NCBI GenBank assembly: GCA_036758585.1
Contig: DAIOWH010000003.1
Location: 6,152 to 70,151 of the forward strand
DNA length: 64,000 bases
Direction of reading: 5' to 3'
From: Planctomycetia bacterium
GTDB lineage: Bacteria; Planctomycetota; Planctomycetia; JALXBF01; JBGPMX01
Part shown: piece by piece, positions 3,109 to 48,873 of the stretch
Numbering within the stretch: the first letter of the stretch is position 1
How the letters are laid out: each line of letters opens with the position of its first letter
Position numbers and translations under genes: made by a program
The notes under the pieces: generated by a model
What the model was told of the DNA's origin: nothing
The model's database searches: none
Seen by the model: only the letters and a program-made list of their open reading frames with translations

Positions 3109-3193
3109 AAGTCGTCCCGACGCGGCCTGTCGTGCATGGTCGCAAGGCGGGGATGCGTGACCGGGTTCAGTTCGAGGGGAAGAAGACGTCACC

Positions 3194-3198
3194 GAGGT
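3194..3198 (+). promoter_or_regulatory. Shine-Dalgarno GAGGT, 6 nt upstream of ATG 3205
   Basis: accGAGGTaagctcATG; same GAGGT core also precedes the second giant gene. Confidence 0.5.
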
Positions 3199-3204
3199 AA
3201 GCTC

Positions 3205-12200: not shown

Positions 12201-15200
12201 CGGCCCGCGGTTCGGTCGGCCCGCCGCGGGCGACTTCGACCTCGACTTCCACCTGTTCGGCGCGGCCGGACCGCTGCGCAGCGACGGCACCGATCAGATC
12301 GTGGTGTACGGCAGCGAGGACTACGACGGCGACGGCTCGCGAGACGCCAGCCTCACTGTCGATGGTTTCACCTTCGATGAAGACGTCAACGGCGACGGCG
12401 ACGTAAACGATTTCGTCTGGTACGTCGATCTCAATCAGAACCGCCGGTTCGACAGCCTGACGGAACGCATCGTGCCGAACCTGGTGAACGAGAACACGTC
12501 GAACAACACCGCAGCGACCGCGACGCCGATCGCGACCCGCCAGATCGGCCAAGGCGCGCTCACGGTCACCGACGTCGACTTCTGGGCCGCGTCGGGAGCG
12601 ACCGCCGGACAGCTTGTCTTCGCCTACGTCGACACGCAGCTTTCCACCAGTAGCACCGACTCGCGGCTGAGCGTGGTCGCCAACAACGGAACCACGGTGG
12701 TCGAGGCCGACGACAACGACGGGCCGGGTTCGCGGGCGGTCGTCGCCGGCGCGGTGGTGCCGCAGGCGGGCAAGGTGTTCTACCAGGTGGATGAACCGGT
12801 CGGCGCCGCAATCGGTTCGTATCAGCTCTACAGCACGGTCACGTCCAGTTTGGGGTTCACCGCTGAAGTCGATCCCAACGGCACGTCGGCCACGGCGACC
12901 GCCTTGAGCGGCGACGAGCTGAAGGGAAGCGGAACGGTTGGCGTCGGCGACGTCGACTTCTTCTCGTTCCAGGCGCTGGCCGGCAGCCGCATCGTCGCCA
13001 TCGTCGATGAGAATCCGGACGACGACGCAAGCAACACGACCGTGGCGATCGAGCTGCGCGGTCCCGACGGGACGACCGTGCTGGCGTCCGGGGACAATGC
13101 GGCGGGCGACGCCGAGGCTGCGGGCGCGGTCTTGTCGGTGAGCCAATCGGGCACGTACTTCCTGCGCGTCGCCGAGGTGGCCGGCAGCGCCGACACGGAG
13201 TATCGCTTCGTCGTACTGGTGTACGACGTGAACCAAAACACCGCTCAGTTGCCGTACATCGGCGATTTCGACGGCGACCGAGCGGCCGATCTGGGCACGT
13301 TCCAGCCCAAGGCGACGCTGACCCCAGACCCAACCGGTTCGGCCAACGACCTTGTGACCTTCACGGCGCGCGAGCCGGGCACGGCGGGCAATAACCTGCG
13401 CGTGCAGTACGTCGCGCAGGTGACCGATGGCGCCGCCAGCGTGGCGGTCGCGGGCAACGATATTACGATCACGCTGGCACGAACGGGCGGCGTGAACATG
13501 ACCGCGGCGGCGTTGGTCCAGTTCCTGCTCACCGATTCGTCGGCAGGCGCTCAGGCGGCGCGGCGGCTGGTCGATGTCGCGGTCGCGCGTGGCACGAGCG
13601 GCGGCGACGCGCTCGGCGCGTTCGGCCCGACCAACCTGACCGGCGGCGGCACTCTGCAGTTCGATCGCGACGGCAACCGCACCAACGATCCGGGCGAGAC
13701 GACGACGGCCGCTTCGACCCCCGCCACTCAAGGCGCCGACGCGGCGTTTGGCGTGCCCGGCCGCTGGGAGCACGATGCCGGCGAGTTCCTGGTCGGATCG
13801 AACGTCCAGGACCTGACGCTTTCGGACCTGGACAACGACGGCAACCTCGACCTCATCGCCGTCAGTCGCGACTCGTTTGCGACCACGTCGACGGTCAGCG
13901 CGGCGACGACCGACTTGGCGGGCGTGACAATCCGCTACGGCACCGGGCGCGGCGGGTTCGAGCGGACCGAACAGCGCTGGACCGCGGGCGTGGCGCCGAT
14001 GGCGGTCGCCGTGGCCGACATGAACGGCGACGGGCTGGGCGACATCGTGGTTTTGAACACGCACGATGTGAACCCGACCGACAACTCGGCGGGTAGCATC
14101 AGCGTGCTGCGCAACCAGGGCGCTCGGTCGTTCGTGCGCGACGACCCGAACACGAACCCTGCGGGCCTCCAGGCGTGGCAGACCGGCGGCGTCGCCCCGC
14201 GCGACCTGGTGCTGGGCGACTTTATTGCCATCGACCGCACCACCGGCGCGACCATGCTCGGCCGCGACGGTTTCCCCGACGTCGCCGTGGCCAACTTCGG
14301 CAACCCCGACCCGAACAACCTCGACGCCTGCACCTCGTTGTCGTGCAACGTCGCGGTGATGCCAAACCGGACCGGTTTTACCGGCACGACGCCGGGCGCG
14401 GTCATCACCTTCCCGGCGGGCGGCGGGGCTGTGGCCACGCCCGTGCCGGCCTACACGCGCAACAACCGCCCGACGTCGATTGCCGCCGCCGACCTGAACG
14501 GCGACGGCTATCTCGACCTGGTGACGGCCAACGCCAGCGACATTGCCAACACCAACGGCACGACCGTCACGGTGCGGCTCGGCCAAGAGAACGGCTCGTT
14601 TATCGTCAATGATCTGGACACGAACACGACCTCGACGACGCAGCACTCCAGCCTGAGTCCGTTCGGGCAGGACCCGGCGGGCATCGCGGTGGCGACCGAG
14701 GTTCAGCCGCTGTTTGGGTTCCGCCAGACCGGGGCGGGCAACACCGCCGTGCAGGCGCAGCGGGTCAATCCGGTAAACGCCCAGTCGACGAACATCCCGG
14801 GCGCGACCCAAGACGTCATCGTCCAGGGCTCGGCCCGCATGCCCGATGGGCTGAACAACCAGGCGTTTGTGTTGGCGCAGAATGAGCGTCAGACGATCAC
14901 GCTCGCCTTCGCCACGGGATCGGCCACCTACACGCTGTTCTTCATCAATCAGGTCACCGGCCCGATCGCCGACAATGCGTCGGCGGCGACTGTGCAAGCG
15001 GCGCTCGAGGGGCTTTCGACGATCGGGGCGGGCAACGTGTCGGTAACCGGCCCGAATGGCGGCCCGTACACGGTGGACTTCCAGGGTGCTCTTGCGTCGC
15101 AAGACGTTCCTCAGCTTGTGGCGACGCCGACGGCGCCGCTTACGGTCACGGTCGGCGCGACCCGCGGCGGCAGCGCCGCCACCGACGCCGGCCGCATTTA

Positions 15201-18200
15201 CGTGAGCGGCACGGATACCAGCACGCCGAACACCGACACCGCTTACAGCGACGCCGCCGGCAATGTGATCGCGCATCGGCTCTATGTGTTGGACCAAAAC
15301 ACAGGCCAACTCGTCCACCCAGTCACGGGTGCTGCGGGCCAAGGGCTGGCGTTCTTTGAAGACCCGTCGGAACGGTCGCAGGCCAGCGCCATCGTGGACA
15401 CCACGGCCGTTCCTGGCGGCGCCGGGCAGCCCGGGCCGGGCGGTGCACGGATCCGGATCACCGCTTCGGAGAACATCCCGGGAATTCAAGGCAATGCGAT
15501 GCGCATTGTCTTTTCGATGAATACAGCCAGCACCGAGACGACCGTAACGGCGAATTGCAACGAGCTTCTGACACTCAACGTCGCATTGGGCAGCGACGGA
15601 ACCAACGTCACGGCCACGAACGCCCAAGTACTCGCCGCACTGAACGCGGCGACCTTCGCGGGCGGCCGGCGCCTGTTGTATGCCGAGTTGATCACGGGCG
15701 TGCTGAACGACAACTTCCTTGGCGACTTCGACAGTTCGAACAACGCCACGGCCCCTCCGCCGGTGGACAACGTGGCGTACTATTCGGCCACGCTGTTTCC
15801 GGCGACTCCCGGTCCGCAGCGGTTCCTGCTCGATGATGTGAACAATAGCGCCGTCGTCACGGGTCCCTTCAATGGCACGTTTACGAACCAGCCGTTCTCG
15901 GGCGGCAGCGGCGGCAGCTTCCACGACGCCCAGTTGGACATCCGTGGTTTGGCAATCCATCCGGGCCCCGGTCCGTTGGCCGGCCAGTTGTTTGGGATCA
16001 TGGGCGGTCCGCAGCGTCTTTTCCCCGCCCCGACCGCGCCGTTTGCGCCGGGCGATCCGCGAAACTTCCAGACGGGTCCGGTCAACGACGGCAACGCGGC
16101 GACTCAGGAAGGCAGTGTCACCGGGCAGTTCGGCGTCGGCGGCTCGTTCTATCTCATCGATCGTCAGACCGGCAAGGTAAGCGTCATGGGTTCGAGTTGC
16201 CAGGTGGCCTTTCCCGAAGGCCTGGCGTTCCGGCCCAACGGGACCGGTCTGAATCCGAACCAGGACCTTGCGGCGGCAACGTTGGCGGACCAGCAGCCCA
16301 CGTTGTTCGCGACCGACGCCGAGTTCCTGCCGGGGTTCGCCACGTCAACGCCTCAGAACTCGACCTTGGTGTACTTGCAGTACACGCCGACTGCCGACTT
16401 CCTGACCAATCAATCCACTTACGTCCCATCGGGCACAAACGCAGGGCCGGGGAGCTGGAACGCCCCGACGGTCACGAACGGCGCCGGGCACCTCTGGCAG
16501 CTCGACCTCACGGGCAACCGCGTGGTCACGCCGCCGCAAGAAAACCAGTTCACCTTTGGTCTGCAGCCGGACGTGGTCCCGATCACGGGCAATTGGGACG
16601 CGCCACGGGCGAACGAGGTGCAGCGGGTCACACTGACGGGCGGCAACACCGGCACTCAGAACTTTACGCTGACGTTCAATGGCGAGACCACGACGGACAT
16701 TGCGGACAACGCCAGCGCCGCCACCGTGCAAACGCGACTGCAGGCGCTGATGGGCGTCGTCGGCAACGTATCCGTCGCCGGCCCGGACGGCGGCCCGTAC
16801 GACGTCACGTTCCGCGCCGGGTTTGCCCGCACCAACGTGCCGCAGATGACGGCTTCGGCTGCTGCGCCGCTTGCGGTGGCGGTGACCACCACGACGCAGG
16901 GTGAAGGCGACGAAGAAATCGGCGACTTCAACACGGCCACCGGCGTGTGGGTGCTCGACTTGAACGGCGATCGGGCCGCGCAGGCGAATGAGATGTCTAT
17001 TGTCTATGGCGTCCGCACCGCCCGAGTCACCACCAGCATCGCCGGCGACGACAACGACCTGGTCTTTACCTCCAGGTTGTCCACGCCGGTCGGGCCGAAT
17101 TTCACGGTTCAGTTGGTCGATCCGCTTCTGGCCAATCAGGCGCTGACCATGGCGGTGACCGGTACCAGCCTGGTCATCAACCTGGCTACGAACGCCACGC
17201 CGGTGGTAACCACCACGGCCCAAGACATCATCGACTGCATCATGAACCTGGTGGTGAATGCGTGCAGTTCGTCGGCGGGCGCCGCGGCCGCGCGGGCGTT
17301 GGTCAGCGTGGCGCTTACGGCGGACGATCAAGCGGCCGGCACCGGCAACACAGGCGCCAGCGCGGTCGCCGCGTTTGGGCCGCGAGACTCGCTGCATGTC
17401 CGGCTCGAATCGCCTGTCGTCGGCGATTGGAACGGCGACGGCATCGACAACATCGGAACATTCGATCGCGGGACCGGCACTTGGACAATCGACCTCGACG
17501 GCGATTTCCGAATCGACGCCGGCGAACAGTTCGGCGGCTGGCTGATCGCGACGGGCCTTCAGGCGATCGTGGGCGACTGGGACGCCGATGGCGTGCGCGA
17601 CGACTTTGCAGTCTACGACAGCGTGTCCGGCGCGCTGGCCGTGGACCTGAACGGCAACCGCGTAATCGATCTGCCGGGCGAGCTGTTCGGCGGCCTCACC
17701 GGCCCGAGCGTTAGCGTTTCCAAGTTCTTCGTCGACCTGTTCGCCCAGCCGGGCGCCATACTCGACGGGCCTGGCGGCGTCGCCGTCGACGCCAGCGGCA
17801 ATGTCTATGTCAGCAGCTTCACCACCGACACGGTCGTCCGATTCAACTCGTTCGGTCAAAACCCCACTACGTTTATCACGGCGAACTTGGGCGGCATGGA
17901 CGGACCGGCGGGTTTGGCGCTGCAGGATGTAAACGCGGACGGCACGGAAGACTTGTTCGTGGCCAGCTTCAACACGAACCAGATTTACGTCTACGATGGA
18001 GCTGCCGGGACTTTGCTGTTCAACTCCGCAATCGGTAGCGTCACGGGGCCAGTTGGGGTCGAGGTCGGGCCGGACCGTAACTCCGATGGCCTGGGCGATA
18101 TTTTTGTCTCCGCCAGCGGAACCGATACGGTGCTGATCTTCGATGCGGCTCCCGCCGGTGCGGGCGCTTCGTTGGGCGTCATGGTGACGGCCGCCACAGC

Positions 18201-21200
18201 CGGGCTGGACAATCCTCAGGGGCTGCGTTTCGGTCCGGACGTCAATGGCGACGGCGTTCGCGACTTGTATGTGGCCAGTGGCGACACGGACCAAGTGTTG
18301 GTCTTTAACGGTGCAAACGGGGCCGCGATCAACCAGCCGGCGGGCACGCCGCCGATCTCCAACAGCGTCTTTGTCGCGGCCGGTACGTTGCTCGACCAGC
18401 CGACCTACCTGGAGTTCGGTCCCGACCTGATGCTCTACGTGGCGGGCGGATTGACGAGCAACGTGAACCGTTACGTAGGCGCCACTGGGGCGTACCTCGA
18501 CGAGTTCGTGCCGGCCGCGGGCGACGTGACGCTGTCGAACGCCCAAGGGCTGGCCTTCAGCTCGACCGGCCAGTTGTTCATCAGCAGCTTCGGAAACGAC
18601 CGTGTGCTGCAGGCGGGTCATTTCGTGGCCGGCGCCCTGTTCAAGCCGGGGCTGGTGGCCCCGCAGTTCGTGGTTCCGGCGAGCGGCCTCAACGCGCCGC
18701 AAGGCATCGCTGTCGGTCCGGATTACAATGCCGACGGCGTCAATGATGTCTACGTCGCGAGCGGCGGTATTGCCAACACGATCCAAGTATTCGACGGAAG
18801 CAGCGGCGCACCGCTGGGCGACTGGCTGGGATTGGCGCCGGTTCAGCCCAACTCACTGCCGACGGCCCCCACCGGCATCGTGTTCGGTCCGGCCGGCGTG
18901 GGCGGTCACCTGTTTGTTTCGAGTTCCGGCACCAACCGAGTCAAGCGTTACGACGACGCCAACGGCAACTTCGTCGGCGACTTCACTCCGACCGTGCCGG
19001 GTACACCCGCAGGCTTCACCGCTCCGACCGGTCTGGTGTTCGGCAACGACATCAACGCAGGTGGTGGCCCCGAACTGTTCGTGGCCAGTTCCACAGGCAA
19101 CGCGATCTTTGCCTTTGACGACACAAGCGGCACGCAGTTCGGCGTCGGCCCGTTCGTCGCGGCGGGGTTGGCGGGCCTGTCGAACCCCGGCGGTCTGGCA
19201 ATGGGCCCCGACGTCAGCGGCGACGGTGAGCTGGATCTGTACGTGGCAAACACCGGCGGCAACAACGTGCTCGTGTTCAACGGCATGGACGGTTCGGTGA
19301 TCAATCGCAATGAAGTCATCAACAGCCTATACGTGCCCGCCGGATCGGGCGGCTTGGCGTCGCCGCGCGACCTGAAGTTCGGGCCCGACGGCCGGCTTTA
19401 CGTCACCAGTTTCACGACGAACAACGTACTCGTGTTCAACGGCGTACCGGCCGGAACGGTGACGGATACCGAACCAAACAGTTCGCCGCCTCCCGCCGCC
19501 GTCGCGCAGAACATCGACTCGGCAGGCTGGAACCTCAGGTCGAACGCCAACATCGGCGACGCGGCCGTGGACACGTCCACGACCATTCCGCACGTGACGA
19601 TCAATGGCACGGGCGACGGCACGGTGGACATCTACTCGTTCACGACCCCGGCGGCCGCCACGCGAGTGATTCTCGATATCGACTTCGGATTCGAAGGCGG
19701 CATGGACGCCTTCCTGCGGGTCTACGACAACCTCGGCAACGTGCTGTTCTCGAACGACGACGCGGCCGCCACGACGGATGGTCAGGGTGGCAGTACCGAC
19801 GTAGTCGACTCGTTCCTCGACATCCCCAACATTGGCGCGGCGGGGACCTACTTTGTTGAGGTCAGCAATGAGGGCGGGGTTGGCGGCGGGGCCCCGATCA
19901 ATGCCGGCGAGACGTATCAGTTGCAAGTGTCGATCGTGGGGCACACGGGCGGCGGCGGAACGTCCTTCGAGGACGATTTCGTGTTCACCGGCAGCGGCGG
20001 ACTTGCCGGGCCGACCTACATGACATTCGACACCAGCACGCCAGGCAGCGCGCTGTACGTCAGTTCGCTGACCGGCAACGCGGTGTACCGCTACAACGGG
20101 CCGTACCTGCCCGAATCGACCTTCCTGAGCCAGTTCGTCACCACAGGCAGTGGCGGCTTGAACGTGCCGCGCGGCGTGCTGTTCGGTCCGGACGGAAACC
20201 TCTATGTGGCCAGCGCGTCGGCCGGGCTCGACCAGATTCTGGAATACGATGGCGTGACCGGCGCGTCGGTGGGCGCTTTTGCCACCGGCGGCGGGTTGAA
20301 TGATCCCCGCGAAATGGCCTGGGGGCCTGACGGCAACTTGTACGTTGCCAATAACGGCGGCGACGACGTTATCCAGATCAATTTCCTCACGGGCGCGGTT
20401 AGCCAGTTCGTGGCATCCGGTTCGGCGGGACTTGCCAATCCGTCAGGAATCACGTTTGGCACGGACGGGAATCTGTACGTGACAAGCACAGTGTTCGGAT
20501 TCGGTGGAGATGCCACGAGCTCAATCGTGAAGCGGTACCAAGGGCCGAATGGAGCGATGCCCGGTGGTTCGCTCGGCGATTTTGTCACGAATAACAGTGG
20601 CGGTCTGGACGATCCGCGAGATCTGATCTTCGGAACGGACCTGAACGGAGACAATGTTCCCGAGCTCTTCGTGTCGAGCGACGACAACGACTCGGTTCGA
20701 GTGTACGACGGCACTTCCGGCGCGCCGGTGGACATCGGCCTCGGGGCGGGCCTGTTCGTCTCCAATGCCGCGACACCTTCGGCCGGGCTGGATGCTCCAC
20801 GCGGGCTGCTGTTTGGTGAAGACGGAAACCTGTATGTTTCAAACCAGGACATTGATGAAGTTCGCCGGTTCAGCGGTCTGACCGGCTTGCTACTTGACAT
20901 CTACGCTAGTGGCAGCTTGCTGGACAGTCCGCAAGGCCTGACATTCGGCCTCGATGGCAACCTCTACGTCGCGGGCGGCAACCCGTTCGGCGGCGGCAGC
21001 ACCAACGACGTGAAGCGGTTCGCACCGTACCCGGTGAGTTCGGGGAGTCTCGGGGTAACGAGCAGCATTGTTCTGCGCGGCAACTTCGACGGAAACGCGG
21101 GCGACGAGATCGCGCTGTTTTCTCAGGCGGCCGGTTCGTTCAGCGTCGACCTGGACGACTCGATGCGCGGCAGCGGAACCATTATCGGCGGCGGCGAGAC

Positions 21201-24200
21201 GATCACAGGCTGGCCGGCCGGCGCCACGGTTCAGCCGATTGTGGGCGACTGGGATCCGGCCGGGATCAGGCCGCCCGACGGCATCGACGACCTGGGCACC
21301 TACGACACCGAGACGGACCCGGCCGATGCAGACAGTCGTACGTTCCACCTCGACCTGAACGGCAACGAGCAAGACGACGACGGCACGATCAACTTCACGA
21401 CGACGTTGCCAACTCGCGGGCCCACGCTGCCGGTGGTCGGTCATTGGGATCCGGCTGTCTTCGGCACCCAGATCGGCGTGGCAGGGTTTTCCAGCCGCGC
21501 GACGTGGTCTCAAACGAACTTTGCGTCGGGCACGGCCGTGGCCACCCTGGGCTTCCAATCGGTGACCGGTCTCGACTTTGCCGACTTCGGCCCGACCGGT
21601 CGCTCGGGCAGCGGCACGCTGTACGGCACCGCCACGCGCAACGAGAACGTGCCCGGCCTCGCCGCGGCACAGCGCTCGCAGGGCATGATCGTCATCCACC
21701 CGCAGGTGTTGGCCGACCCGCGCGGCAACGTCCCGACCGCGGCAAACGCCGGGTTCGTCGGATTCTTCAAGACCGGCCCGTTCTCAGCGTCGATCTTCGA
21801 GGCCAACTCGGTCGCCGTCACCACGTGCTCCACACCCGCGCCGGCCGGCTTGGGCGCGGTGCAGTGCCCGATCAATCCCGATTCATACAACACGATCGTG
21901 TTCGGTCGGCCCAGCGTCTACGACCTCGACGCCGACTCGCGGCCCGACGTAGTCACCGCCAACGCCGGCACGCAGCAAGGCGCGGCCGCCACCGGCGACA
22001 ACGTCTCGGTGCTGTTCAATACCACGAATATCGCCGGCCAGGGTACGCTCGCGCCGACGCCCAACGCGACCGTCGACACCGCCACGGGCGTCACCTTCCG
22101 CGCGCCCGAACGGTTCGCAACCACCGTGCTCGATCCGACCACCGGTCTGCCGGTGCGCGGCATCGACCCGCACGACCTGAGCCTGGTCGACACCGGCGGC
22201 CCGCGATCGCTGATCAATGACGTCGACGGCGACGGCGTTTTTGACGCGGCCAGCGACGCGAGCGTGCCGATCCGCGACATCACCACGGTCAACCGATTCC
22301 TCGGCGACGTCAGCACGCTGGTGAACCAGAATCCCACGTCGCTGCTGGCCGAGGCGCTCGATGCGCCGAGCACGACGTGTACGGGGGCCGGGCCGACCAA
22401 CTTCGCCACCGGGGCCGTGGCCGGCGCCTGGGGAATCGACAACACGTTCGGCCAGGGATTCGGCGAATGGAAGTGCAGCAATGGCCGATCGCTGACGCTC
22501 GGCCACACGCCGCTCCAGAGCTTCTACTACGGCGGCAACGAGACGTCGGTCGGCGGCGGCAGCTACAGCGCCAGCACCGAAGGCGTGCTGTACACTCGCG
22601 ACGTCGTGCTGCCGGTCGTCGGACCGGGCCAGCAGATCGTGCTCAACTTCAACAGCTTCCTGTCGATGGAGGCGGGCGGCGAGATCGCCGAGGTGTTCGC
22701 CGTGGACGCGACCACGCTGGCCCCGATCACCAACAACCCGAACAACTCGGCCGGCCAGCAGGCGGTGTCACAGTTTGTGGCCCGCGCCGCCGATGGCACG
22801 CTGAACGCCAACAGCGGCGCGTTCGTCGCCGAGAGCTTCGACATATCGCGGTTCCAACAGATGAACGTGCGGTTCGCGTTCCGGTTCCGCGCCAACGCCG
22901 CCGTCGAACTGGAAGGCTGGTACGTCGACGACCTGGTGGTGACGCCCAGCCAGTTCCTGCCGCACAGCGCCTCGCCGTTCCCAGTGGGCCGCGAGCGCGA
23001 CCAGGCGGGCCCGGTCGCCATCGTCGCCGGCCACATGAACGACGACAACAACGACGGCGTGCTTGGCCAGGTGTTCGATCGCGACGGCCGCATCGTCCGC
23101 AACGACTCGATCGACTTCCTGACGGCCAACAGCGAAGACGGTTACACGCTGCCCGAAGCGGTCCGGCCTCAAGGGCGGTTGCAGATCAAGAATTCAACGT
23201 TCTTGCACTCGTCGGCCTCGGCGCTGGAACTCGGACCTACCACGGCGGTCGTCTGCAGCGGCGGTGCGCCGCCGAACAACAACCCGCCGTGCAGCCAGCC
23301 GACGCCCGACGGAATGCGCCTGTTGCCGGTCGCCACCGACCTGGCGCCCGGCGTCGAGGTGCTGAACAACGTGTTCATCGCCAACACCACCGGCGTGCGC
23401 CTGCAGGGCAATCTGTCGGCGACGAACACCGCGCAGTTCCCGCCCGCTACGTCGATACCGAAACCGTTTGCACACATCGTCAACAACAGCTTCTCGCGCA
23501 ATGGGACCGGCATCAACGTTTCCGACGGCGGCGGCCCGACGATTCGCAACAACTCGATCGCCTACACCTCGGGCACCGGTTTGGCGGTCGACGTCGCGTC
23601 GCAGAACACAACGATCGTCAGCTTCAACCTGTTCCATCTGAACGGCACCAACGCCACGGCCGGCTTGAACAACAACAACGCCGTGCTGGGCGACCCGCGG
23701 TACGTGAACCCGGGCGAAGACGTGAACCGCAACGGCGTGCTCGACCCCGGCGAAGACGCCGACGGCGACATGGTGCTCGACGTGGGCGACCTGCGCATCC
23801 AGGTCGGGTCCAAGGCGATCGACGCCGCGCTGTCGAACGACGACGACCGGCTCGAGGCCGCACGCAACGCCAGCAATCGCAACTCGCTGGTCGGCGGCAA
23901 CCGCGTCTTCCCCACGCCGCTGGCCAATCCGGAACGGCTGCGCCCCGAGGTGCTGTTCGGCGCCGAGCGCGTCATCACCAACGATCCGCAGCCCGGCGAC
24001 TTCGTGACGCTCGACCACGACGGGTTCGAGCGGGTCGACGACCCGAACACCACCAACGTCGGCGTCGGCACCGATCCGTTCTTCGATATCGGCGGCTACG
24101 ACCTGCGCGACCTGGTGCGCCCGCTCATCGAAAGCTTCGCCATCAGCGTGGCCAGCGACACCGGCGAACAAAACGAATCGCAGCCGTTCGTGAGCCGGCA

Positions 24201-27200
24201 AAACCAGCCCACGTTCCACGGCCTCCTGACCGACAACTCCAACGACGTCGACGGCCTGCGCGTCGAACTCGAGATAGACGGCGACGGCCTGTTCGACGAC
24301 GGCTCGGCCTTCACCAGCATCGTGCGCGACGCCGACGGCAATCCGGTGTTCCTCGCCGGCACCAGCCTGATACTGGCCGAGTTCTTCATCTCGCCCAACA
24401 CTCCGCTGGCCGATACGTCGAGCCAACTGGTCGAGGTGCGCGTGCGCGACCGCAGCGACAACGTGTCGTTCGTGCGCCGCAACTCGTTCGGCGTCGACAC
24501 GGTGACGCCTCAGGCCAACCGCGCCACGCTGCCCAGCCCGCAACAAGTGTTGATCGAACTGACCGAACCGGTGCGTCTGACCCCCGACGGACTGGTTGCC
24601 TACTATCAACTCGAGGGCAACCCAGGCTCGAACCCCATTCTGACCGCGCGCGACCTGTCGCTGTTCCTGAACCACGCGACGGCGTCGGGCACGGTCTTCA
24701 CGATCGAAGATTCCAACGTCACCGGCCAGACCCCGATCGGATGCTCGACTCTGGGCGTGAGCACCGAGTGCTCGTCGTCGAGCGCGCTGTTCCGCGGGCC
24801 GTCCGACAACTCGGCCGAGATCGAGCCGTTCCTGGTGACCGAGATGCCGACGCCGAACGCCGACCTGCTCTACCGGGCCAAGGCGCCTGGCGCGGCCGGC
24901 AACGCAATCTCGATCGAGTACCGCAATTCCGTGTTGGGCAACGCGGTGCTCGATGCGTCGGACGTCGTCATCACGGGTACGGCGGTGGTCGTGAATCTGG
25001 CCACCGACGGCGCAGGCAACGTGCTGGCGGCGAACACGGCCGCGGCGGTCCGCGACGCGATCAACGCCAGCGCGGCGGTCACCGGCGGATCGGCCTTCCT
25101 CGAGCGGGTCGTGCTGCCCACCACGAGCGACGGAACAGGCGTGGTCAGCGTGATGGGTCCGCAGTTCCTGGCCGGCTCGCGCCCGATCATTCAGGCGCCC
25201 GACAACCTCGACCAGACGCTCGACCTGTTCCCCAATGCGAGCCTGCGCACCGCGCTGCCGCTCGACGACGACGATCTGTTCTTCGTGTCCAAACTGCCCG
25301 GCCGGGCCGGCAACGGAATCCTGATCGAGTACTTCAATCCGGGCGCCAGCAACCCCACCGAGTCGGTGTCGGTCACACGCAGGCGGGCCAACCTGACGAC
25401 CAACCTGCCCGGCGCGAACAACGACCTGCGTTTCACCGCCACGGCGACAAACGACGGGGCCATCGGCAACAACATCCGCATCCGCTACGTGGTCCAGGGC
25501 GCCAACACACCGCTGTCGGTCGCTGTCAGCGGCACTGACATCACCGTCAACGCGCAGACCGACGGCTTGGGCAATGCGATCAGCACGGCCTCCCAGGTGC
25601 GCAATCTCATCCTGACCAACGGCTCGGCCGGCGCCGTCGCGGCGCGAGCTCTTGTGGGCGTTGCCCTGCCCACCGGCAACAACGGCACCGGCGTCATCAG
25701 CCCACTCGACTTCACCAACTTGTCGAACGGCACCGACACGATCCGCGTCACGCTGGCGACCGACGCCAACACCAACTCGCTCACGCTCGCGTCCACCGTG
25801 AAATCTCTGATCGAAGCCGCTACGGTCGCACCGAACAATGCCAACGATCTCGTGAGCGTCTCGTTCGCCGAGACCGGTGGCACTGACCTGGTCCACGACC
25901 TCGTTCCGCAGCGACTGGCGGGCGGCGCGGGCGAGTTCTCGATCATGATGCTCGTGAACCCGCGCGACCACGGCAACGATCCGGCCTACGGCGACCCGCT
26001 GGTGCGCCCGCTGCTGTCGAAGCACACGCTGGGCATCCAAGACGGCGGCTGGGAACTGTTCCTGGAAGACGACCTCGACAACCCCGGCAACGAGATCGCC
26101 GCGTTCCGCGTGTACCCGGTCGGCGGCAACACGACGGCCAGCTTCACCAGCGACTTCGAGGGCACCGACAACGATCTGGTGTTCACTTCGCTGGCCAAGG
26201 ACGCGACGGCCAACGACATTTCGGTGCAGTTGCTGGCGCCGGCCGCCGGCACGGCGGCGAACACCGCGCCGACGGTCAACGTGGTGCGAACACAGGCGTC
26301 TCTGACCACGGCGCTGGCCGAGGGCGAGAACGACCTGGTCTTCCAGGCCCAAATGGCCTCGCGGCCCGGCGGCACCGGCAACGCCATCCGGATCGCCTAC
26401 GTCGTCAGCGGACGCAACACGCCGCTCAGCGTGACCGTGCCGCGTGCTAGCGTCTCGGGCGTCGGCACGGTCGTCGGCCAAGACATCATCGTGAACGTCG
26501 CGACCGACGCGGCCGGTCTGCCGATCAGCACGGCCGCCGAGATCGAAAACTTCATTGAGACGGACGTGTCCCAGGGCGCTCAGGACGCCCGGGCGCTCGT
26601 GACGGTCAATCCGGCCCCCGGCAGCGACGGTACCGGCTTTGTGCGGGCGTTCCCGTTGACCAACCTCGCCGGCGGGCGCGACGAGATCCGCATCACGCTC
26701 GGCACCGACGCATCGGGCGCCATCGGCAGTTCGGCGAACGCCGTGCGCACGTTGGTCAACATGGACACGACGGCCAACACGCTCGTCGGCGTCACTCAAG
26801 CGGCCGGCAGCGCGACGGGCATCGGCCTGATCACCACGCCGATCGCGGCCCAGTTCCTCACGGGCGGCTCGAACACCCAGACGGTGCGCAGTACCGGCCG
26901 GTTGCCGATCCGCACCGGCGAGTGGCGGCACCTGACGTTCACCTACAATCCGGGCACTCAACTGTTCCGCGTCTTCGTCGACGGCCAGCTCGAACTCGAG
27001 GCCGCAACGCCCGACGAGGGCGGGTCGCAGGGCATGGCCATCTCGAACACTACGCCTTCGGTGCGCATCGGCCAGCTCGACGGGCCGTTCCCAACGTTCG
27101 ACGGCCTGATGGACGAGCTGTCGCTCTGGCGACGCGATCTGGCTCAGGAAGAGATTAACCGGTTCCGCAACCGTGAACTGCCGGTCAGCGTCGAACTGCT

Positions 27201-30200
27201 CGCGGCCGGCGGCACCAGCGACCCCAACGGCGACAACGACCTGTTCAACGACGGCAACGAAGTGGTGATCCCGATCACTTCGTTCAACGTCAACAACAGC
27301 TACTGGACCGACGCCAACCTCAACAACATCATCGACGGCAACGAAATCAAGCACCTGGTGACGCTGACCGTCGCCGACCCGCGCACACCGAACCCGCCGG
27401 TGCCGATCACGCCCGGCGAGCTGGCGACCGATCGCTACCAACTGCGGCTGCTGAGCAACGCGGCCAACACCGACCAGGCCGGCAACATCCTGGACGCGGC
27501 CACCTTTGTCCTGGCGGTTGACCACAACGACAAGCCGGAATTCGCCGAGGAGTTTGGCGAGATCGTACACCGCTTCGATCCGAGCCTGACGATCACGCCG
27601 GGCGACGAGGACTGGTACAAGTTCACCGCGGCGGTGGACGGCACGGTCAGCCTGCGGCTGACGCTGAGCGACCCGCGCGGCAACGGCGTGCTCGATTGCG
27701 GCGCCGACCTGGTGTGCGGCACCGGCGACGCGGGCGACGAGGACCTGGACAACGATGGATCGCTCGATCCGGGCGAAGACCTGCCCGACGGAGTGCTGCG
27801 CGAAGACGAGACGCTGCGGCTGCAGATTTACGATTCGTCCCTGCCGACTCCGACACTGCTCGGCGAGGGCACGGTGAACGCCCTGACGTTCGAGGTGCGA
27901 CTCGACGACTTCACCACCGACGACGGACCCGGCACGGCGAACGGCCGCGAGTTCTTCATCCGCGTCTGCGGTCTGCCCACGGCGGCTGAGACGGCGACGG
28001 GCAGTCCGTTCACACCGGCGGGTTACCCCAACGGCTGCAGCGACGTATCAGGAAACGACTACAACCTCGACCTGATCGTGCACGACCGGTTCGAGCGATT
28101 GAACAGCGCGCACGAGCTTTATGCGTCGCGGCCGACGGTCAACGCGCCGCTGATGATCGTCGATTACACGTCGGCGTTGGCGCCGCCTCTGGGCAGCGCG
28201 ACCAACCGCACTGGCCCGGTCACTACGCTGACCCCGCTGGGCGACATCGACTTCGACGACTCCGGACGGCTCTACGCCGGCACGATCAACGGCGGCAACT
28301 CGATCGTCCGCCTGCACCCCGACTTCGGCTCGGTCATTCAAACGATCACGCTGTCGCCGGCGACCGGGTTCACGTTCCCCGCGCCCGGCACCGCGTCGGT
28401 GACGGCGATTGAGTTCCAGCCGGGCACGGGCGCCGTGTTCGCCGCGCTGATGTTCGGCGGCGCTGGTTCAACGTTGGCGACCGTCGATCTCTCCACCGGA
28501 CAGGTTACGCCGGTCGGCGGCGCGTTCGGCAACACAGGTGTCGGCGCTATCGGCGGCCTGGCGTTCGACCCCGCCGACCCGACGGGCGGCACGCTGCTGG
28601 CCGTCACCGAGTCGGGTGCGTCGAGCGGCCTCTTGGTAACGCTCGACCTGACGACCGGTCTGGCCACCTCGATCAACACCACGGGCTTCACCGACGTGTC
28701 GGGCCTCGAGTTCCACCCGCTCACGGGCAAGCTGTACGCGACGTTGGGCCCGAACGAGAGCACCACCGGCGCCGGCCGACCGGGCGACCTGGTGATCATC
28801 GACCCGGTGACGCCGACCTGCGGCCTCGGCACGACCGCGGTCGTCGGCGTGGTCGGCTGCGGCGGCCTGGGCACGAACGTCGCGCTCAACGGCGTGTCGT
28901 TCCGGCCGCGCGGCAACGATACGCCGATCTCGACGACCGGCCTGCCGACCAATACGACCGAAGAACTGGTTCACGTCGTGGACGCGCCGAGCAACACGCG
29001 CAACCTGACGCTGCCGCTGCACAACCCGCTCGAGACGGGCGTGCAAGACGATGAAGACTGGTACACGTTCACGGTCCGCGCCGACAACGGCCAGATCACG
29101 GTGCGCATCGACCTGCGCGACCGCAACGGCGACGGTTCACTTGGCCTCGACGAGCGGCTCGGCCTCGAGCTGTACACGCCGCTCGACCTGGTCACGCCGG
29201 TTCAGGTCGGCATCGTGTCGAACACGTTCAGCGTGGTGGCGGCCGACGTGGCGGCTGGGCGCGGCGATGTGTTCCTGGCCCGCGTCTTCGGCAACCCGGG
29301 CTTCAACGAATACGATCTGGAAATCTTCAACGACGACCGGCTCGAACCAGTGGTCACGCCCGAGGAGCTGTTCGCGACGTCGACGAATCCGGCCAAGCCG
29401 TTCACCGTGGGCGACGTCACCAGCGGCCCGCAGTTGGTTACGGTCGACACGGCGACCGCGCTGGCAACCGCGGTCGGCCAGACGCTCGCGGCTGGCAGTC
29501 CGACCACGATCGAGGCGATCGATTTCGATGTGGTCGGGAACCTGTATGGCGTGCGCAAGGTCGATGCACCGGACACGCCGGCCGGAACGGACCCCGATAC
29601 CGACGTCGACGATACGCAACTGGTCTTTATCAACCCGTCCGACGGCAGTGTCACGGGCATCGGCTTCGCGATCGATAAGATAATCACCGCGATCGAGTTC
29701 CACCCGGTCACGGGCGAGTTGTTCGGTACGGCGGTGCCGGCGGCCACGCCGAGCAACTCGGAACTGGTGCAAATCGACCAGACCACCGGCGCGGTGACGG
29801 TCATCGGTATGGGGACGACGGTCGGACCGTTGGGCGGCCTGGCGATCCATCCCGACGGCACTTTCTATGCGATCACGTCGGGCGGCGGCGTGCTGGTGCG
29901 ACTCAACACGACCACCGGCGTGGCGACGGTTATCAATCCGACGGGCTTCACCGACGTGTCGGAGCTGGAGTTCGATCCGACGAACACGTTCATGTACGGC
30001 GCGTTGGGGGATCTCGAGAACACGTCGGCGCCGGGGCTGCCCGGCGACCTGGTGCAAATCGATCCGTTCGACGCCAGCAACCCCGTCGTTGTGGGCCCCA
30101 CCGGGTTCGGCGACCTGGGCGCGCTGTCGTTCCGGCCGCGGCGGTTCGGCAACGACACGACCGAGACGGCCACGAGCCTGGGCGACCTGGTGAACGTACA

Positions 30201-33200
30201 CGAGCCGAACCTGACGATCACGCGCGACGGCCTGCAGGGCGCCGCGCCGACGCGGGCCGACCAGGACTTCTACGCGTTCCGCACCACGGTGACGGGCAAG
30301 GTCTTCATCGACGTGCGGCTGCACGACCGCGACAACGACGGCGTGCTCGATCCCGACGAGAAGCCGTCGCTGCAACTGCTCGACGCGGCGGGCGCCACCG
30401 TGTTGGCCACGGGAGTGTACGACTCGACGCTCGACGACGACGGCAACGGCGTGGCCGGCCGTGCGTTCTTCGACCACGTCAGCACAGGCGGGAACAACGA
30501 CCTGCGGTTCCTGGCCGCGGCGACCGGACCGGCGGGCAACAACGTCACCATCGCGATCATCGCCCCCGGCGCGGCCAACCAGCCGCTCACGATCAATGTC
30601 GTGGGCAGCGCGATTACCGTTCAACTCGCGACCAACGCCTCGTCGGTCGTGACGACCACCGCTCAAGGGTTGATCACGGCCATCCAAAACGACGGGGCAG
30701 CCAGCAGCCTGGTGACCGTCCAGGGAACCGGCGATTTCGGCGCCGGCGGCGGTACCGTCACAGCGCTGCCGACGACGAACCTGATGGGCGGCGACACCGA
30801 CGACGGGTTCAGCGTCTACATCACCGAGGTCCCGAACGACCCGGACGCGGGTTACCGCGTGCAACAGGGCGAACGGTTCCGGATCCGTATCGGCAACGAT
30901 GAGGTGCAGACGCTCACGCTGACGGGCGGCGGCGCGACGGACACGTTCACGCTCACGTTCAACGCGGCGACCACGCCGACGCCGTTGGCGCGAACAGCCA
31001 CGGCGGCCCAGGTGCAGACGGCGCTCGAGGCCCTGGCGACCGTCGGCGGCGGCAATGTCACGGTCACCGGTCCGGCGGGCGGGCCGTACAACGTGGCGTT
31101 CCAACAGGCCCGCGGCAATGCGAACCAGCCATTGGTCACCGGCGCGGGCACCGGCGGACTGACCGTCGCGCCGACGGCCGCAGTCGAAGGCGGCAGCGCC
31201 CATGCGGTCTACGACCTGGACATCCAGAACGAAGACCGCTTCGAGTTCAATAACTCGGCCGATCCGAGCGGCAACGCGGGCTTCACACGGCCTCAAGGTC
31301 CAAACACTGTCGGGGCCAACGATGCCACGACAGGACCGACGGTGCCGGCGTTCACCTTCGGCGCGGGCACCACGCAGCCCGATGTGTTCATGCTCGGCGA
31401 TCACGTGATCGTCATGAACGACTTGAACCTGCCGGTGCGCACCAATCGCTCACCCGACGGCACGATCACGGCGTTCAACGACAACGACTTCTACCGGTTC
31501 ACTGCCGCCCGAACGGGAGTACTGCACCTACGCGTCGACCTCAACGACCTCGACGGCAACGGTACGCTCGACTCGGACGAGACGCTGTCGGTGGAGCTAT
31601 TCCGCGGCGCAGTCCTGCAGGCGGTCGCGACCGTGACCGACAGCGTGATGACCGACGGCGACGGCTTCGGCCTGTTCGTCAATGACGTCGTGGCCAGCTT
31701 GGGCGAAGTGTTTACGTTGCGTGTGTTTGGCCAAGGGCCGCTGGCGAACATTCGCGGGTTCACCGATTACGGGCTGACGCTGGGCAACCAAATCGCCATC
31801 ACTGACGACCGGTTCGACCAACCGATTTCGGCCGCGCCGGGCGATCCGCTGGGCCGCAACGATTCCAGCCTGCCCGCGGTCCGCACCGACCTCGGCGTCA
31901 TCTCGCGGTTCGACGACGACACGCTGTCGATCAGCTTCAACGACAACAACGCCAACATCAACAGCCCGCTCAGTCCGGCTGATGGCGACTGGTACCGGTT
32001 CACTGCCAACGCCACTGGCTTCCTCGACATCGGTCTCACCCTGCGCGATCTCGACAACGACACGGTTGCCAGCGCCAACGAGTTGCTCGACTACAGCCTG
32101 TACAGCGACGCCGGCGCATTCATCGGCCAGGCTTCCACGACGGTCGGCGGCCCGCTGCTGCTGTTCGGGTTCAACGAGGTCCAGCGGGTTGCTTTGAGCG
32201 GCGGCATTGGCACAGACACGTTCAATCTGACGTACACCGACGGATCTGGCCCCGAGACGACCACAGACCTTGCGCGAAACGCGACGGCGGCCAACGTCCA
32301 GGCCGCGCTCGAGGCGCTGGCCGGCATCGCGCCGGGCGACGTGTCGGTCAGCGGCGCGGACGGCGGCCCGTATACGATCACGTTCCAGGGCAATCTCGAG
32401 AAGACCGACATCGCACAACTGACGGCCGGCAGCACCGGTTCGCTCAGCGTCGCCGTCACCACCGTTACCGACGGCGGCCGAAACCTGAGCGTCACGGCGA
32501 GCGACACGTTCCTGCTGCAGGTCACAGGCACGAGCCAGCTCAACGTCAACAACTACCGGCTGGAGATTCTGAACCACGACGTGTTTGAGCGTGCGTCGTC
32601 GTCGTTCCCCGACGGCTCAGGCTCGCCCGAGCCGTATCCCGACGACCTGAACAACCGCAACGATTCGGTCGCGTCGGCCACAGATATCGGCACGATCGTA
32701 CACCGGTTCGTCGCCGACTACACGTTGTCCGACCTGACGATCGTGCCGACCGCGCTGGCCAGCCCGTTCTCGGCCACGTCGGGGCCGGCCGACACCGACT
32801 TTTTCTTGATTCAGCCGATGGCCCGCGGATCGCTGACGATGCGGATGGATCTGGACGACCCGGACGGCGACGGCACGCTGGACCCATTGGAGAATCTGCA
32901 GCTTGCGATCATGGCGCGTGGGGTCACCTGCCCGACCAGCGCCGGATTCACCGCACTGGCCACGGCCGCGTCGGTGACGGGCGCCCCGTTCAGTACGGCG
33001 ATCACGGACTTCGCCGTCAACGAGGACGAGTGTCTGTTGGTGCGCGTACGTGCGCCGCAGTTCGGAGCGCCGTTCTCGGCCAACGGCTACCGACTCCAGT
33101 TCACCAACCACGACGCCTTCGAACAGACGGCGAGTGCATTCCCAGTCGGCGATGGCATCTTCCCCGACGATCCCGACCGGCGCAACGACAACCTGCTGCA

Positions 33201-36200
33201 ACTCACCGACCTGGGCAATGCCGGCGGCGTGCCGTTCGACCTGACCATCGCCCCGCCCACGCCGTTCTTCACGGGCGCCGCCACGACGCCGAACATCCTG
33301 GTGACCAGCGAAGTCACGACGGGCGATAGCGAACTCTTTGAGTTCACGTCGGTCGGGACCCTGCGGCAGCAAGTGGCGCTGCCCTACGGGCCGGTAGGCG
33401 CCTACCCGGCCGGCGAGTTTGCGCGTGACGTCGAAGTCGACGCAGCGGGCAACATTCAGATCTACAACGGCACGTTCGGACCGTTCCTGACCACCGTCGA
33501 CCAGTCGTTCACCACGTTCCAGCATCAGGCTGAGGTGGGCTGGAGCACGGTCAATCGGCTGGGTTACGGCCATCTGGCGGCGTTCGGGCAATACATGTTC
33601 GCCAGCGACATGGTGACCGCAGGCGCCGGATCGCCCAATGGCGTCATTCGGTTCGACCTGGCGACCGGAGCGGCACAGCGGTTCGCGTCCGGAACCAGCT
33701 ACGGCGTCGTGGCGGCCGGGTACGACGGGCTGATCTACGCCTCGATCGGCACATCGCCGACCAGCCGCATCGACGTCTTCAACCCGACGACGCTCGCGCT
33801 CGTCCGATCGATTACGCCGGCGAGCACGGTAGACGTGGTCGGCATGGGCGTCACGTCGACCGGCGAACTGTACGTCGCCGACCTCGCCGCCCAGGTCGTG
33901 CGGTTTGACGGCACGGGCGCCGAGTTGGGCCGGCTCGACGTCTCTGCGCTGGTCACGAACCTCACGGACCTCGACCTGGCCGAGAATGGTCGCATCGTAC
34001 TCGGTTCCACTACGGGCGACGTCGTGCTGACCAGCACCGCGTTGTCGTTCCCGAGCCGGTTCAACATCGGTTCGGCGACTCCCGTGTACGTCGGGTTCAA
34101 CACGCCCAGCACGGCGACGCAGCCGGGCGACGTCGATTTCTTCCAGGTTCAGGCGGTCGGCACCGGTACGATCGACTTCCAGATCGATCTGCGTGACCCC
34201 GACCGCAACGGCATGTTCGACATCGCCTCCGAGGCGCTTGAGCTGGCCGTGGTCGACGCCAACGATCCGTTCGGTGCGCCGCTGGCGACTGGTACGCAGA
34301 TCACCGGCACCGCTTCGTTCCTGATCGACGACTTCGCCGTCACCCAGAACGACATCGTTGTGCTGCGTGTGCAGGGCGTCACGGGAAGCGAGGAAAACGC
34401 GTATCGGCTCAAGGTGATCGGCGACGACCGCTATGAACCGAACCCCAGCCTGTTCCCGGTCGACGACGACGGCTTCGCGGGCAACGACGCGAACGACGGC
34501 CCGTTCCCCGACGACCCCGACGGCCGCAACGATTGCACGGCGATCACGGGGCCGCGGACCAGTTGCGCGACCGACCTGGGCACGATCGTGAGCGCCATCG
34601 AAACCGGTCTGAACATTTCGGACCTGCCCAACGGCAACGCCGACGTGGATTGGTTCCGGGTCACGGCCGGCGCCCGAGGCCAACTGAACGTGTCGCTCGG
34701 ACTGGTCGACCAGAACGGCAACGGCATACTGGACACCGCCACGAGCGTACCGGCCGGCGACGAGCTGTTGGACTTCAAGGTGTACGATGCGAACGGCACC
34801 GAGCTGACGACGACCCGCACGATAAACGGGTTCGTTGTGAGCATCTCGGGGGCGACGCCGTTGTCGATTGTCGCGGCGCCGCAGACGTTCCTGATCGAGG
34901 TGTTCGGTCCCACCGTGCCGACGCCCGCTCTGACGGCGGTCAACGACTACACGCTGAGCGTTTCGGTGGACGACGTCTTTGAGGTATCGAGCAGCCTGTT
35001 CCCGCCCGGCGGCGCGTTCCCAGACGACCCGGATGGTCGCAACGACCTCGGCGCCGATTTCGCGCCATGCGACGCGGTCGCGGGCACGGGCGCGGGCCAA
35101 GTGTCTTGTATCACCGACCTGGGCCTTATTGCGCACCTGCGCAGCGCGGACTACACCGGGTCCGACCTGACGATCGCACCGTCCGGCTCTGTGGCGTCGT
35201 TTGTGCCCGACACCGACATCTTCCAAATCACGCCGACCGCGACCGGCACGATCACGGTGCGGCTGACCCAGGACGACCTCAACAACAACGGACTACTCGA
35301 CGCCAGCGAGATGCTGACGCTGGACATCGTCGACCTGGTGAATCCGCTGGGCGCTCCGTTCGCCACGGCGAACCCGTCGCCGTTCAACCCGTTCGTGCTC
35401 GAGATACTCGATCAGCCTGCCATCGAGGGCGTGGCGATCGGACTCCGTGTACGTGGCATCACCGGCGCGCTCGAAACCAACTCCTACTCGCTTGATATTC
35501 GCAACGACGATCGCTTCGAGTTGGCCACGTCGATCGCCCCGGTGGGCGACGGCGTGATGCCGGACGACCCCGACGGGCGCAACGACAACGCGGTCGCCGC
35601 CGAAATCACCGACCTGGGCAAGTCGATTCGCGCGGTCCAGTCGGGTCTGACGATTACGCACTCGCCTGGCGACGAGGACTGGTTCAGCTACACGATGCCG
35701 ACGAACGCAAGCCTGCACGCCTTCCTGACGCTCATCGATGTCAACAACGACGGCGTCCTCAATGCCAGGGAATCGCTTGATATCGAAGTGTACGACGCAA
35801 CCGGAACCACACGGATCGATAGCTGTGCGCCGGCGGCCTGCACACCTGCGGGCTTCATGGTCGACGCCGGCTACATCGCGCTGCCGGAAGACACGCAGGT
35901 GCTCGTGCGCGTGGTGGGCGGCTTCGCGGGGTTCGGCAATCCGATCTCCGACGCGTATACGCTGACGCTCGTCGCCGACGACCGCTTCGACCTGCCGACC
36001 TATCCCGGCCCGGTGCCGCCCAACGATCCGAACGGGCGCAACGACAGCGACGCCGCCGGGTCTGTTACCGATTTCGGCGAGGTCGTACACACCGTCGAGG
36101 ATCTGCTGACGCTGCCGCTCGGCGACCAGGACTGGTTCAAGATTCAGGCCGCGGTGGACGGGTCGATCAGCGTGCGCATTCGGCTCGACGACGTGGACGG

Positions 36201-48621: not shown

Positions 48622-48861
48622 TCGGCAATATGTTGTAAGAATGCAACGCGCCGCTAGGTTGGGTGGGATGTACCAGCACGGCGGGTGGGCGGTGGCCTGC
48701 GAGGCGGCGTGTCGGCCGTTGGACTACAGCCTGAGAATGGAACTGTCGAAGTTCCAGCATGTCTCCGGGGGGAGGCTCTCCACGCCTGACGTTTTGCGGG
48801 CGGCCTTGATCGCCCGTGTTCTGCTTCCGCCGGTTACGGACAGGGGCGTTTTTTGGGAATC

Positions 48862-48866: not shown

Positions 48867-48873
48867 CCAACAA

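Follow-up and report, generated by a model that had tools for sequence, protein, structure and literature searches.

Immunoglobulin-like (Ig-like) decoration domains, among them Big_2, I-set and FN3, are promiscuous, non-catalytic domains of about 100 residues that occupy exposed sites on capsids, tails and adhesins, often in several copies. Tail sheath proteins carry accessory domains of similar length: PF17481 (Phage_sheath_domII) is the outer domain of Mu-type sheaths, and the 'sheath extension domain' of gp20 from Agrobacterium phage Milano (residues 91-203), which is likely its structural counterpart and is grouped with it here, has been described as external (PDB 8FOP; PMC10811340). Here we examine a repeat of about 100 residues, module A, that recurs in two giant genes (gene 1 and gene 2) of a Planctomycetia bacterium (assembly GCA_036758585.1, contig DAIOWH010000003.1, positions 6,152 to 70,151 of the forward strand); the whole stretch analysed, 64,000 nucleotides long, is referred to as the window. 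Our results indicate that module A is probably a solvent-exposed, non-catalytic, loop-insertable decoration or adhesion module, the functional part of this statement being held with less assurance than the rest.

Like the Ig-like decoration domains, module A is a promiscuous and probably non-catalytic unit of about 100 residues. However, Ig-like domains are all-beta sandwiches strung end to end, whereas module A is predicted to have a mixed alpha/beta fold with two helices, and is typically inserted in loops, even in its own. With PF17481 and the Milano domain it has in common that it is an accessory domain, about 100 residues long, built into a sheath protein; unlike PF17481, it also occurs well beyond sheaths, and does so in multiple copies, some in tandem and some nested. 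Its resemblance to the variable outer domains of flagellins is one of position, since it sits in the middle of FlgL and flagellin and also in FlgE/hook-domain proteins, and of its C-terminal half, where a strand, a helix ending in ...aIN and another strand recall the IN motif of PF07196 (Flagellin_IN). The weak Flagellin_IN matches nevertheless cover only half of the module, and no solved flagellin outer domain matched the predicted model. Two whole-protein phage families, phrog_8757 (head and packaging) and phrog_279 (tail sheath), also contain the module, but PHROG families are clusters of whole proteins that have neither a domain definition nor a tested function, and the window proteins are cellular giants, not virion proteins.

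Copies, predicted fold and nesting of module A

Gene 1 is a single open reading frame (ORF; 3094..48621, + strand) of 15175 residues, and gene 2 starts at about 48790 on the same strand and runs past the window end (48790-63999 inside the window), encoding at least 5070 residues. A profile hidden Markov model (HMM) was grown iteratively from one copy against the two giant proteins until convergence. This window-only profile gave 19 matches in genes 1 and 2, with domain E-values from 2e-7 to 2.5e-36, and a broader profile built from 88 diverse family members gave 20, the extra one being 56191-56391; 20 shuffles of both proteins produced 0 matches at E<=10. An earlier note on this DNA, made from the letters alone, had described a repeat family in both genes, and the family is real: every range that it listed was matched by the HMM, and the shuffles gave none. 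The HMM matches correspond to about 17-18 domains, arranged as singles, one tandem pair and three nested pairs. The figure of at least 20 copies in that note is slightly high as a count of domains, because nine matches are halves or inner copies of the three nested units. Likewise, the seven occurrences that it placed in 24860-26880 are seven matches but five domains (one single and two nested pairs). The copies and the laminin G (LamG) segments that surround nested unit 2 are as follows.

6592..6801, +, gene 1: partial module A (profile 1-64; 57.0 bits, independent E-value 3.1e-19)
13345..13647, +, gene 1: full module A (profile 1-100; 86.0 bits)
15451..15699, +, gene 1: divergent or partial module A (profile 3-82; 50.6 bits)
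17053..17376, +, gene 1: full module A with an insertion in the helical part (67.6 and 53.6 bits with the window-only and the broader profile; the window-only match is 17053-17343)
24862..25176, +, gene 1: full single module A (77.2 bits)
25273..25407, +, gene 1: nested unit 1, outer N-terminal part, beta1-beta3 and linker strand (profile 2-43; predicted secondary structure fits the single-module topology)
25420..25731, +, gene 1: nested unit 1, inner complete module, the copy used for structure prediction (111.8 bits)
25735..25926, +, gene 1: nested unit 1, outer C-terminal part, beta4-alpha1-alpha2-beta5-beta6 (profile 37-100; 45.0 bits)
25927..26133, +, gene 1: N-terminal part of the LamG (Laminin_G_3) host, broken by nested unit 2 (aligns with the gene 2 LamG start, GEFSIMM.../GEFTISLW...)
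26170..26316, +, gene 1: nested unit 2, outer N-terminal part (profile 1-45; 23.9 bits)
26329..26676, +, gene 1: nested unit 2, inner complete module (98.2 bits)
26680..26868, +, gene 1: nested unit 2, outer C-terminal part (profile 37-100; 37.3 bits)
26869..27160, +, gene 1: C-terminal part of the LamG host (PF13385, E 2.7e-15, profile 45-151)
30496..30792, +, gene 1: full module A (84.5 bits)
41347..41652, +, gene 1: full module A (88.5 bits), with a weak full-length PF17481 match (E 0.06)
52486..52761, +, gene 2: full module A (62.4 bits)
55732..55884, +, gene 2: nested unit 3, outer N-terminal part (NNDLLITGRG...GVSVVRTQASLPTALAGVDN), below the HMM threshold and identified by visual comparison with units 1 and 2
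55885..56184, +, gene 2: nested unit 3, inner complete module (106.4 bits; phrog_8757, E 9.6e-5)
56191..56391, +, gene 2: nested unit 3, outer C-terminal part (broader profile 38-95, independent E-value 3.4e-4)
56767..57030, +, gene 2: full module A, first of the tandem pair in the gene 2 LamG (66.4 bits)
57100..57357, +, gene 2: full module A, second of the tandem pair in the gene 2 LamG (69.4 bits)
58312..58437, +, gene 2: fragment of module A (profile 60-100 only; 19.1 bits, independent E-value 2e-7)
58492..58734, +, gene 2: C-terminally truncated module A (profile 1-76; 68.5 bits)

The consensus of the 88 diverse members, DL.fTA...G..GN.I.i.yvdpg.....L.v.V.G..ItV.LATdg.g.itsTA..i..Ai.a...A.aLV.a.la.g..G.GvV.A...TnL.GG., reproduces the one derived earlier from the window, including its ITVNLAT...TA motif. 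A conserved linker strand, A-S/T-L-T-T-x-L-x-G-x-N-D-L, precedes each module, so that the true unit is nearer 110 residues. Pairwise identity among the window copies is just 26-54%, suggesting that they are old, diverged duplications. The fragment at 58312-58437 represents the last 40 positions of the profile (alpha2-beta5-beta6), lies 18 codons upstream of the truncated copy at 58492-58734, and may be a decayed or rearranged unit.

AlphaFold 2 (AF2), given an alignment of 14 window copies, returned a single-module model with a mean predicted local distance difference test score (pLDDT) of 90.9 and a predicted template modelling score (pTM) of 0.83. Four strands (4-7, 20-25, 33-37 and 40-45) are followed in the model by two helices (57-66 and 70-78) and two further strands (79-82 and 96-100), and module A would accordingly be a domain that folds on its own, about 100-110 residues long, in the predicted order beta-beta-beta-beta-alpha-alpha-beta-beta.

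Between 24860 and 26880 the order of matches is a full module, then an N-terminal half, a full module and a C-terminal half, and then the same triplet again. The end of each N-terminal half and the start of each C-terminal half fall around the beta3-beta4 hairpin of the profile, and we read each triplet as a complete module inserted in the beta3-beta4 hairpin of another module. A third nested unit is found in gene 2 (55732-56391), and 39 arrangements of N-terminal half, full module and C-terminal half were counted among 184 module-holding proteins, with insertion points at the beta3-beta4 hairpin, in the beta4-alpha1 loop or near profile position 28. When nested unit 25261-25932 was modelled with AF2 from a 5-sequence alignment (pLDDT 82.9, pTM 0.76), the inner module scored above 90, and the split outer module kept the order of the single module, with three strands before the insert and a strand, two helices and two strands after it.

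Modules are also placed within other domains, and at least two of the arrangements in the window sit in loops of LamG domains. In gene 1, the Laminin_G_3 match downstream of nested unit 2 is confined to profile positions 45-151, and the missing start lies on the other side of the unit: residues 7613-7680 (GEFSIMMLVNPRDHG...FRVYPVGG) align with the unbroken start of the gene 2 LamG (GEFTISLWTFIRDHG...FEVYDAAG), and the alignment picks up again past a 245-residue insert. The gene 1 LamG (25927-27160) holds the nested pair after strand FRVYPVGG. In the homologous LamG of gene 2 (56350-57534), the tandem pair at 56767-57357 is inserted at a later loop, after EWRFHL, and the C-terminal part resumes at about 57430-57534 with TFDGFIDEVQIWNRD, the equivalent of TFDGLMDELSLWRRD in gene 1. 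By these alignments, gene 1 has three levels of nesting, in that a LamG contains a module and this module contains another, and the same homologous host domain has been invaded at two different loops. What is most unusual about module A is this recursive architecture, with its invasion of loops.

Occurrence outside the window and in curated libraries

Searches with the window-only profile against 1.84 billion cluster representatives returned 3776 clusters at E<=1e-3 and 1618 at E<=1e-10, and the matched proteins span 185 to 7482 residues. A word-indexed search added 32 small proteins of 123-197 residues with one module each and no Pfam domain. One small protein (P0152, 144 residues, one copy), on an 83-kb phage contig, is encoded immediately upstream of genes for a prohead protease and an HK97 capsid protein. 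The Pfam and PHROG content of the carriers was determined in a sample of 103 proteins of <=800 residues. Only a minority of these had any Pfam match at E<=1e-5 (8 families, 29 family-member matches), including Flagellin_N (8), FlgE_D2 (5), Flg_bbr_C (4), Phage_cement (1) and GDSL lipase (1). The PHROG matches comprised virion structural phrog_8757 (37), tail sheath (7), major head (2), major tail (2), baseplate wedge (1) and tail fibre (1). Among the flagellar carriers, an annotated FlgL from a deltaproteobacterial metagenome-assembled genome (P0015) contains three modules between its N- and C-terminal helical regions.

The link to annotated sheaths came from P0014, a 707-residue protein with four modules, which matches a segment of about 105 residues in the tail sheaths of phages Valp1, H905, ZRG1 and AcaML1. 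The window-only HMM aligned end to end with the annotated sheaths of Vibrio phage Valp1 (64 bits), Pseudomonas phage ZRG1 (62 bits), Aliivibrio phage H905 (51 bits) and Acidithiobacillus phage AcaML1 (45 bits). In all four the N-terminal arm is followed by the module (residues about 55-150) and then by Gp18_domIII_N (about 147-202); the sheath protein FI of phage P2 is about 100 residues shorter, with Gp18_domIII_N at 26-86 and no module. Immediately downstream of the P0014 gene (locus L016, 1644-3767) is a tail tube gene (Phage_tube_2), an arrangement that puts P0014 in the position of a sheath gene, and P0014 is probably a sheath protein. Searching 50,697 phage records by tblastn with a single window copy or with the small protein P0145 gave no match, and only the multi-copy P0014 connected the module to annotated sheaths in the phage-record search.

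P0014 has relatives (P0002, P0004, P0006, P0010 and others) that are phage proteins of 700-1050 residues with 4-6 copies of module A and conserved ends (N-terminus F/L-L-x-I-A-D-R-L-A-x-Q-Y, C-terminus GGE.GD...ER.I.L). This group matches phrog_8757, labelled 'head and packaging', and probably represents a sheath type that the Pfam sheath models do not recognise. A 332-residue hypothetical protein of Caudoviricetes sp. vir515, a virus with a host in Methanosarcinales, carries module A at 89 bits with the window-only HMM (locus L002, 3947-4945), and its gene is flanked by the one for the major tail protein and by the tape-measure region; the module is therefore present in archaeal viruses as well. 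A scan of species genomes with one copy found a single locus, in Heyndrickxia camelliae (NZ_PIQO01000004.1; L011, 2062-4476). The carrier there is a secreted M14 zinc carboxypeptidase of 804 residues, with one module just N-terminal to the catalytic domain and with C-terminal CHB_HEX_C_1/Fn3_assoc domains; here the module occurs in a low-GC (guanine plus cytosine) Firmicute and in a setting that has nothing to do with phages, flagella or giant proteins.

The earlier note had called the repeat unassigned, and this holds for Pfam-A and NCBIfam. No Pfam-A model reached its gathering threshold with single window copies or with the 88 family members, so that the significant Pfam match named in that note as evidence to the contrary was sought and not found, and NCBIfam gave no recurrent match to module A. 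Its exclusion of the Ig-like/Big, cadherin, Calx-beta, PKD and PPC families was also borne out, as neither these nor other curated repeat domains had a Pfam match within the module (window copies at E<=10, 88 members at E<=1), and the Big_13, Big_6 and PPC matches in genes 1 and 2 fall outside the modules. The most recurrent Pfam signal was PF17481, which matched 14 of the 88 members below threshold (best E 5.7e-4); Flagellin_IN matched four of the 88 (best E 0.008) and no window copy. Phrog_8757 was matched significantly by the window copy at 55885-56184 (E 9.6e-5) and by 37 of the 103 carriers at E<=1e-5 (best 7.7e-31), in each case through the module region only (about 133-232 of 326), which indicates a shared domain and not membership of the whole protein. 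Relatives matched phrog_279 with E-values down to 1.1e-11.

Structure prediction and search, which the same note had proposed, gave a compact predicted fold without a PDB match at E<=0.001 when the single-module model was compared with Foldseek, and nothing significant was found with the nested model. The top PDB matches (OtsA, gephyrin/MoeA, a Pol III subunit and MXRA8) were non-significant and were rejected. In BFVD, Foldseek found three uncharacterized phage proteins (E 1.5e-4 to 4.7e-4, template modelling (TM) scores 0.64-0.71). A sequence profile search of the PDB reached E=0.001 at best. No description of module A was found in the literature searched. The suggestion of a novel domain family therefore stands insofar as the curated libraries contain no model of it, but the module is widespread and already lies within annotated sheath, flagellar and PHROG proteins. 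Domains of this kind are known; module A is a family of them that has yet to be curated, and it is not peculiar to these two genes.

Relation to the sheath outer domain and possible role

Given the recurrence of PF17481, module A could be a divergent member of that family, perhaps frame-shifted or circularly permuted, and not a separate family at all; we regard this as an evenly balanced proposition. Besides the weak Flagellin_IN matches, PF17481 was the sole recurrent Pfam signal, and it aligned over nearly the full profile with a window copy (E 0.06) and with the Valp1 sheath (E 6.1e-4). The PDB profile search was topped by Milano gp20, with an E-value of 0.32 for a profile of 14 sequences and 0.001 for one of 88, and the matched residues, 111-153 and 158-215, lie mostly inside the external extension domain. 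Alignment of profiles with hhalign against 41 Mu-type domain II sequences gave a probability of 32% and a P-value of 4.8e-4 over a strand-strand-helix block, and a tandem-duplicated module profile extended the alignment to 107 columns across the copy junction (probability 43%, P 2.5e-4). Reciprocal HMM matches were weak, yet all fell inside domain II in a consistent register, and the motif TA..G..GN.I is common to both families, as is a block of strand and helix with ...aIN at its end.

These scores nevertheless remain low. The gathering score of PF17481, 31.4 bits, was reached neither by the best window copy (14.2) nor by the Valp1 module (20.6, the highest of any member), whereas Mu gpL as a control scored 48.4 (residues 99-203); the hhalign probabilities are just 32-43%; and no sheath chain, that of Milano included, was among the best 50 of 84 Foldseek matches of the single-module model (pLDDT 91). 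The insertion sites also differ. Domain II of Mu gpL (residues 99-203) and the extension domain of Milano gp20 (91-203) follow the first segment of the sheath body, a placement that module A does not share: in the module-bearing sheaths it is inserted before Gp18_domIII_N and not, like PF17481 in Mu gpL, behind it, and the window copies sit in giant multidomain proteins, not in sheaths. Against domain II of Mu gpL alone, a single sequence, hhalign gave a probability of 0.4%, and a search with that sequence returned one fragment. XkdK of phage phiCD119 (356 residues) is without domain II.

The order of the shared elements is opposite in the two families, the ...aIN block of Mu-type domains (for example, P0215 at about 100-205) preceding the TA..G..GN.I hairpin and that of module A following it. 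A circular permutation or register shift is hinted at by hhalign, because its alignment extends across the junction of the duplicated profile, and this comparison of profiles suggests such a relationship to Mu-type domain II. Module A is outside PF17481 as that family is defined, but it could plausibly belong to one superfamily with the sheath outer domain, the chances for and against being about equal.

A broader view, which we offer tentatively and consider somewhat less probable than its opposite, is that module A represents a large superfamily, unmodelled in Pfam-A and NCBIfam and with no solved structure found, that undergoes recursive loop insertion and has been exchanged among phage virion proteins (of sheath, head and tail), the flagellar filament, junction and hook, and giant secreted proteins. 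If its fold is distinct from the solved outer domains of sheaths, module A would be a new structural family and would point to module traffic between phages and bacterial surface organelles.

For a decoration or adhesion module, the features of module A are those expected of a loop-insertable accessory domain: a predicted fold of its own, many architectures, and positions inside the loops of its hosts (sheath, FlgL, LamG and module A itself). The N and C termini of the module probably lie close together, which would let it drop into host loops, and on giant extracellular proteins it could provide bulk and spacing, and perhaps contacts of a weakly adhesive kind, a decoration role that would parallel that of the sheath external extension domain and of the outer domains of flagellar filaments. 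Many of the carriers (sheath, FlgL/flagellin, hook, capsid-associated and tail proteins) are components of repetitive surface assemblies. The conserved positions of the 88-member consensus are Gly, Ala, Thr, one Asn and aliphatic core residues, and no His, Cys, Lys, Arg, Glu or aromatic residue is conserved in it. Catalysis or a fixed binding pocket is disfavoured because of this, and the reading of module A as an enzyme was rejected.

Several points weigh against an exposed, loop-inserted decoration module. The outer module of the nested AF2 model, based on five sequences, is less confident than the inner one (block pLDDT 57-86). The function is assigned from context only. The external position in Valp1-type sheaths is assumed, and the insertion site there differs from that of the Mu and Milano domains. 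Finally, a structural link to the solved external sheath domain is unsupported by the best 50 of the 84 Foldseek matches.

The main functional rival is that module A binds a specific ligand, such as a glycan, and thereby targets giant proteins, tails and flagella. Such a role would suit a module present on surfaces that contact cells or matrix (sheath, filament, hook, capsid-associated and giant secreted proteins, and a secreted peptidase) and that neighbours LamG, BNR and NIDO domains in the window, and outer domains of flagellins have been reported to affect motility and the properties of the surface (PMC8931119, PMC11532411). The aromatic and charged residues typical of glycan sites are not conserved, however; conservation is confined to turn and core residues, and copies that are 26-54% identical leave no conserved surface patch at the sequence level. 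We therefore consider specific ligand binding unlikely. That the repeat is an artefact of Ala/Gly/Thr/Val-rich translation from 66% GC DNA has practically no chance of being true, since, although the module is rich in these residues and window GC is 62-68%, the shuffled proteins gave no match, the position-specific scores rise to 112 bits, full-length matches occur in Lys/Glu/Ile-richer proteins of different composition (the Heyndrickxia peptidase and P0014), and the AF2 fold is confident and has the structural counterparts in BFVD described above.

Module A, a probable decoration or adhesion module, brings to light neither a new biological mechanism nor a new kind of system. It is, however, well suited to becoming a new curated family, and what would help most is a curated definition of that family together with a structure. 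In the window it covers roughly 1,700 residues of giant-gene sequence that have no Pfam assignment, and a family definition would annotate thousands of 'hypothetical' phage, flagellar and giant-protein sequences. The module also links accessory outer domains of contractile tails with those of flagellar axial proteins, and so bears on the diversification of phage and bacterial surface structures. A compact module that seemingly tolerates insertion in loops, even its own, would also be of use to structural biologists, in protein engineering and display.

Composition and surroundings of the giant genes

The two giant proteins contain extracellular-type Pfam domains, and are giant secreted multidomain proteins. 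Gene 1 encodes an S8 subtilase, BNR, FG-GAP, MAM-like, NHL, PPC and Laminin_G_3 domains and arrays of Big_13 and Big_6, while gene 2 encodes an M10 peptidase, a beta-helix and Laminin_G_3, NIDO and BNR domains. Both proteins begin with a basic region followed by the motif LERLEERVLL and then by the peptidase domain (S8 at residues 267-534 of gene 1, M10 at residues 220-310 of gene 2), and N-termini resembling LE.LE.R.LL are found in other giant carriers of module A, namely P0036 (7482 residues) and P0093 (7355 residues). In its C-terminal part (window 33094-48093, mainly gene 1 residues about 13300-14900) gene 1 carries Big_13 (16 stretches, E 1.5e-295) and Big_6 (9 stretches) domains in long arrays, and large parts of both giant genes have no Pfam assignment. 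The upstream neighbours encode a DUF1501 protein and a PD40/TolB-like beta-propeller; the DUF1501 neighbour and the LERLEERVLL motif would by themselves suggest a member of the Planctomycetota. Many long ORFs on the minus strand (up to 1458 residues; for example, 5515-8571, 12106-15960 and 23194-27570) overlap the giant genes, the simplest explanation being that they are shadow frames, poor in stop codons, of coding sequence with 66% GC.

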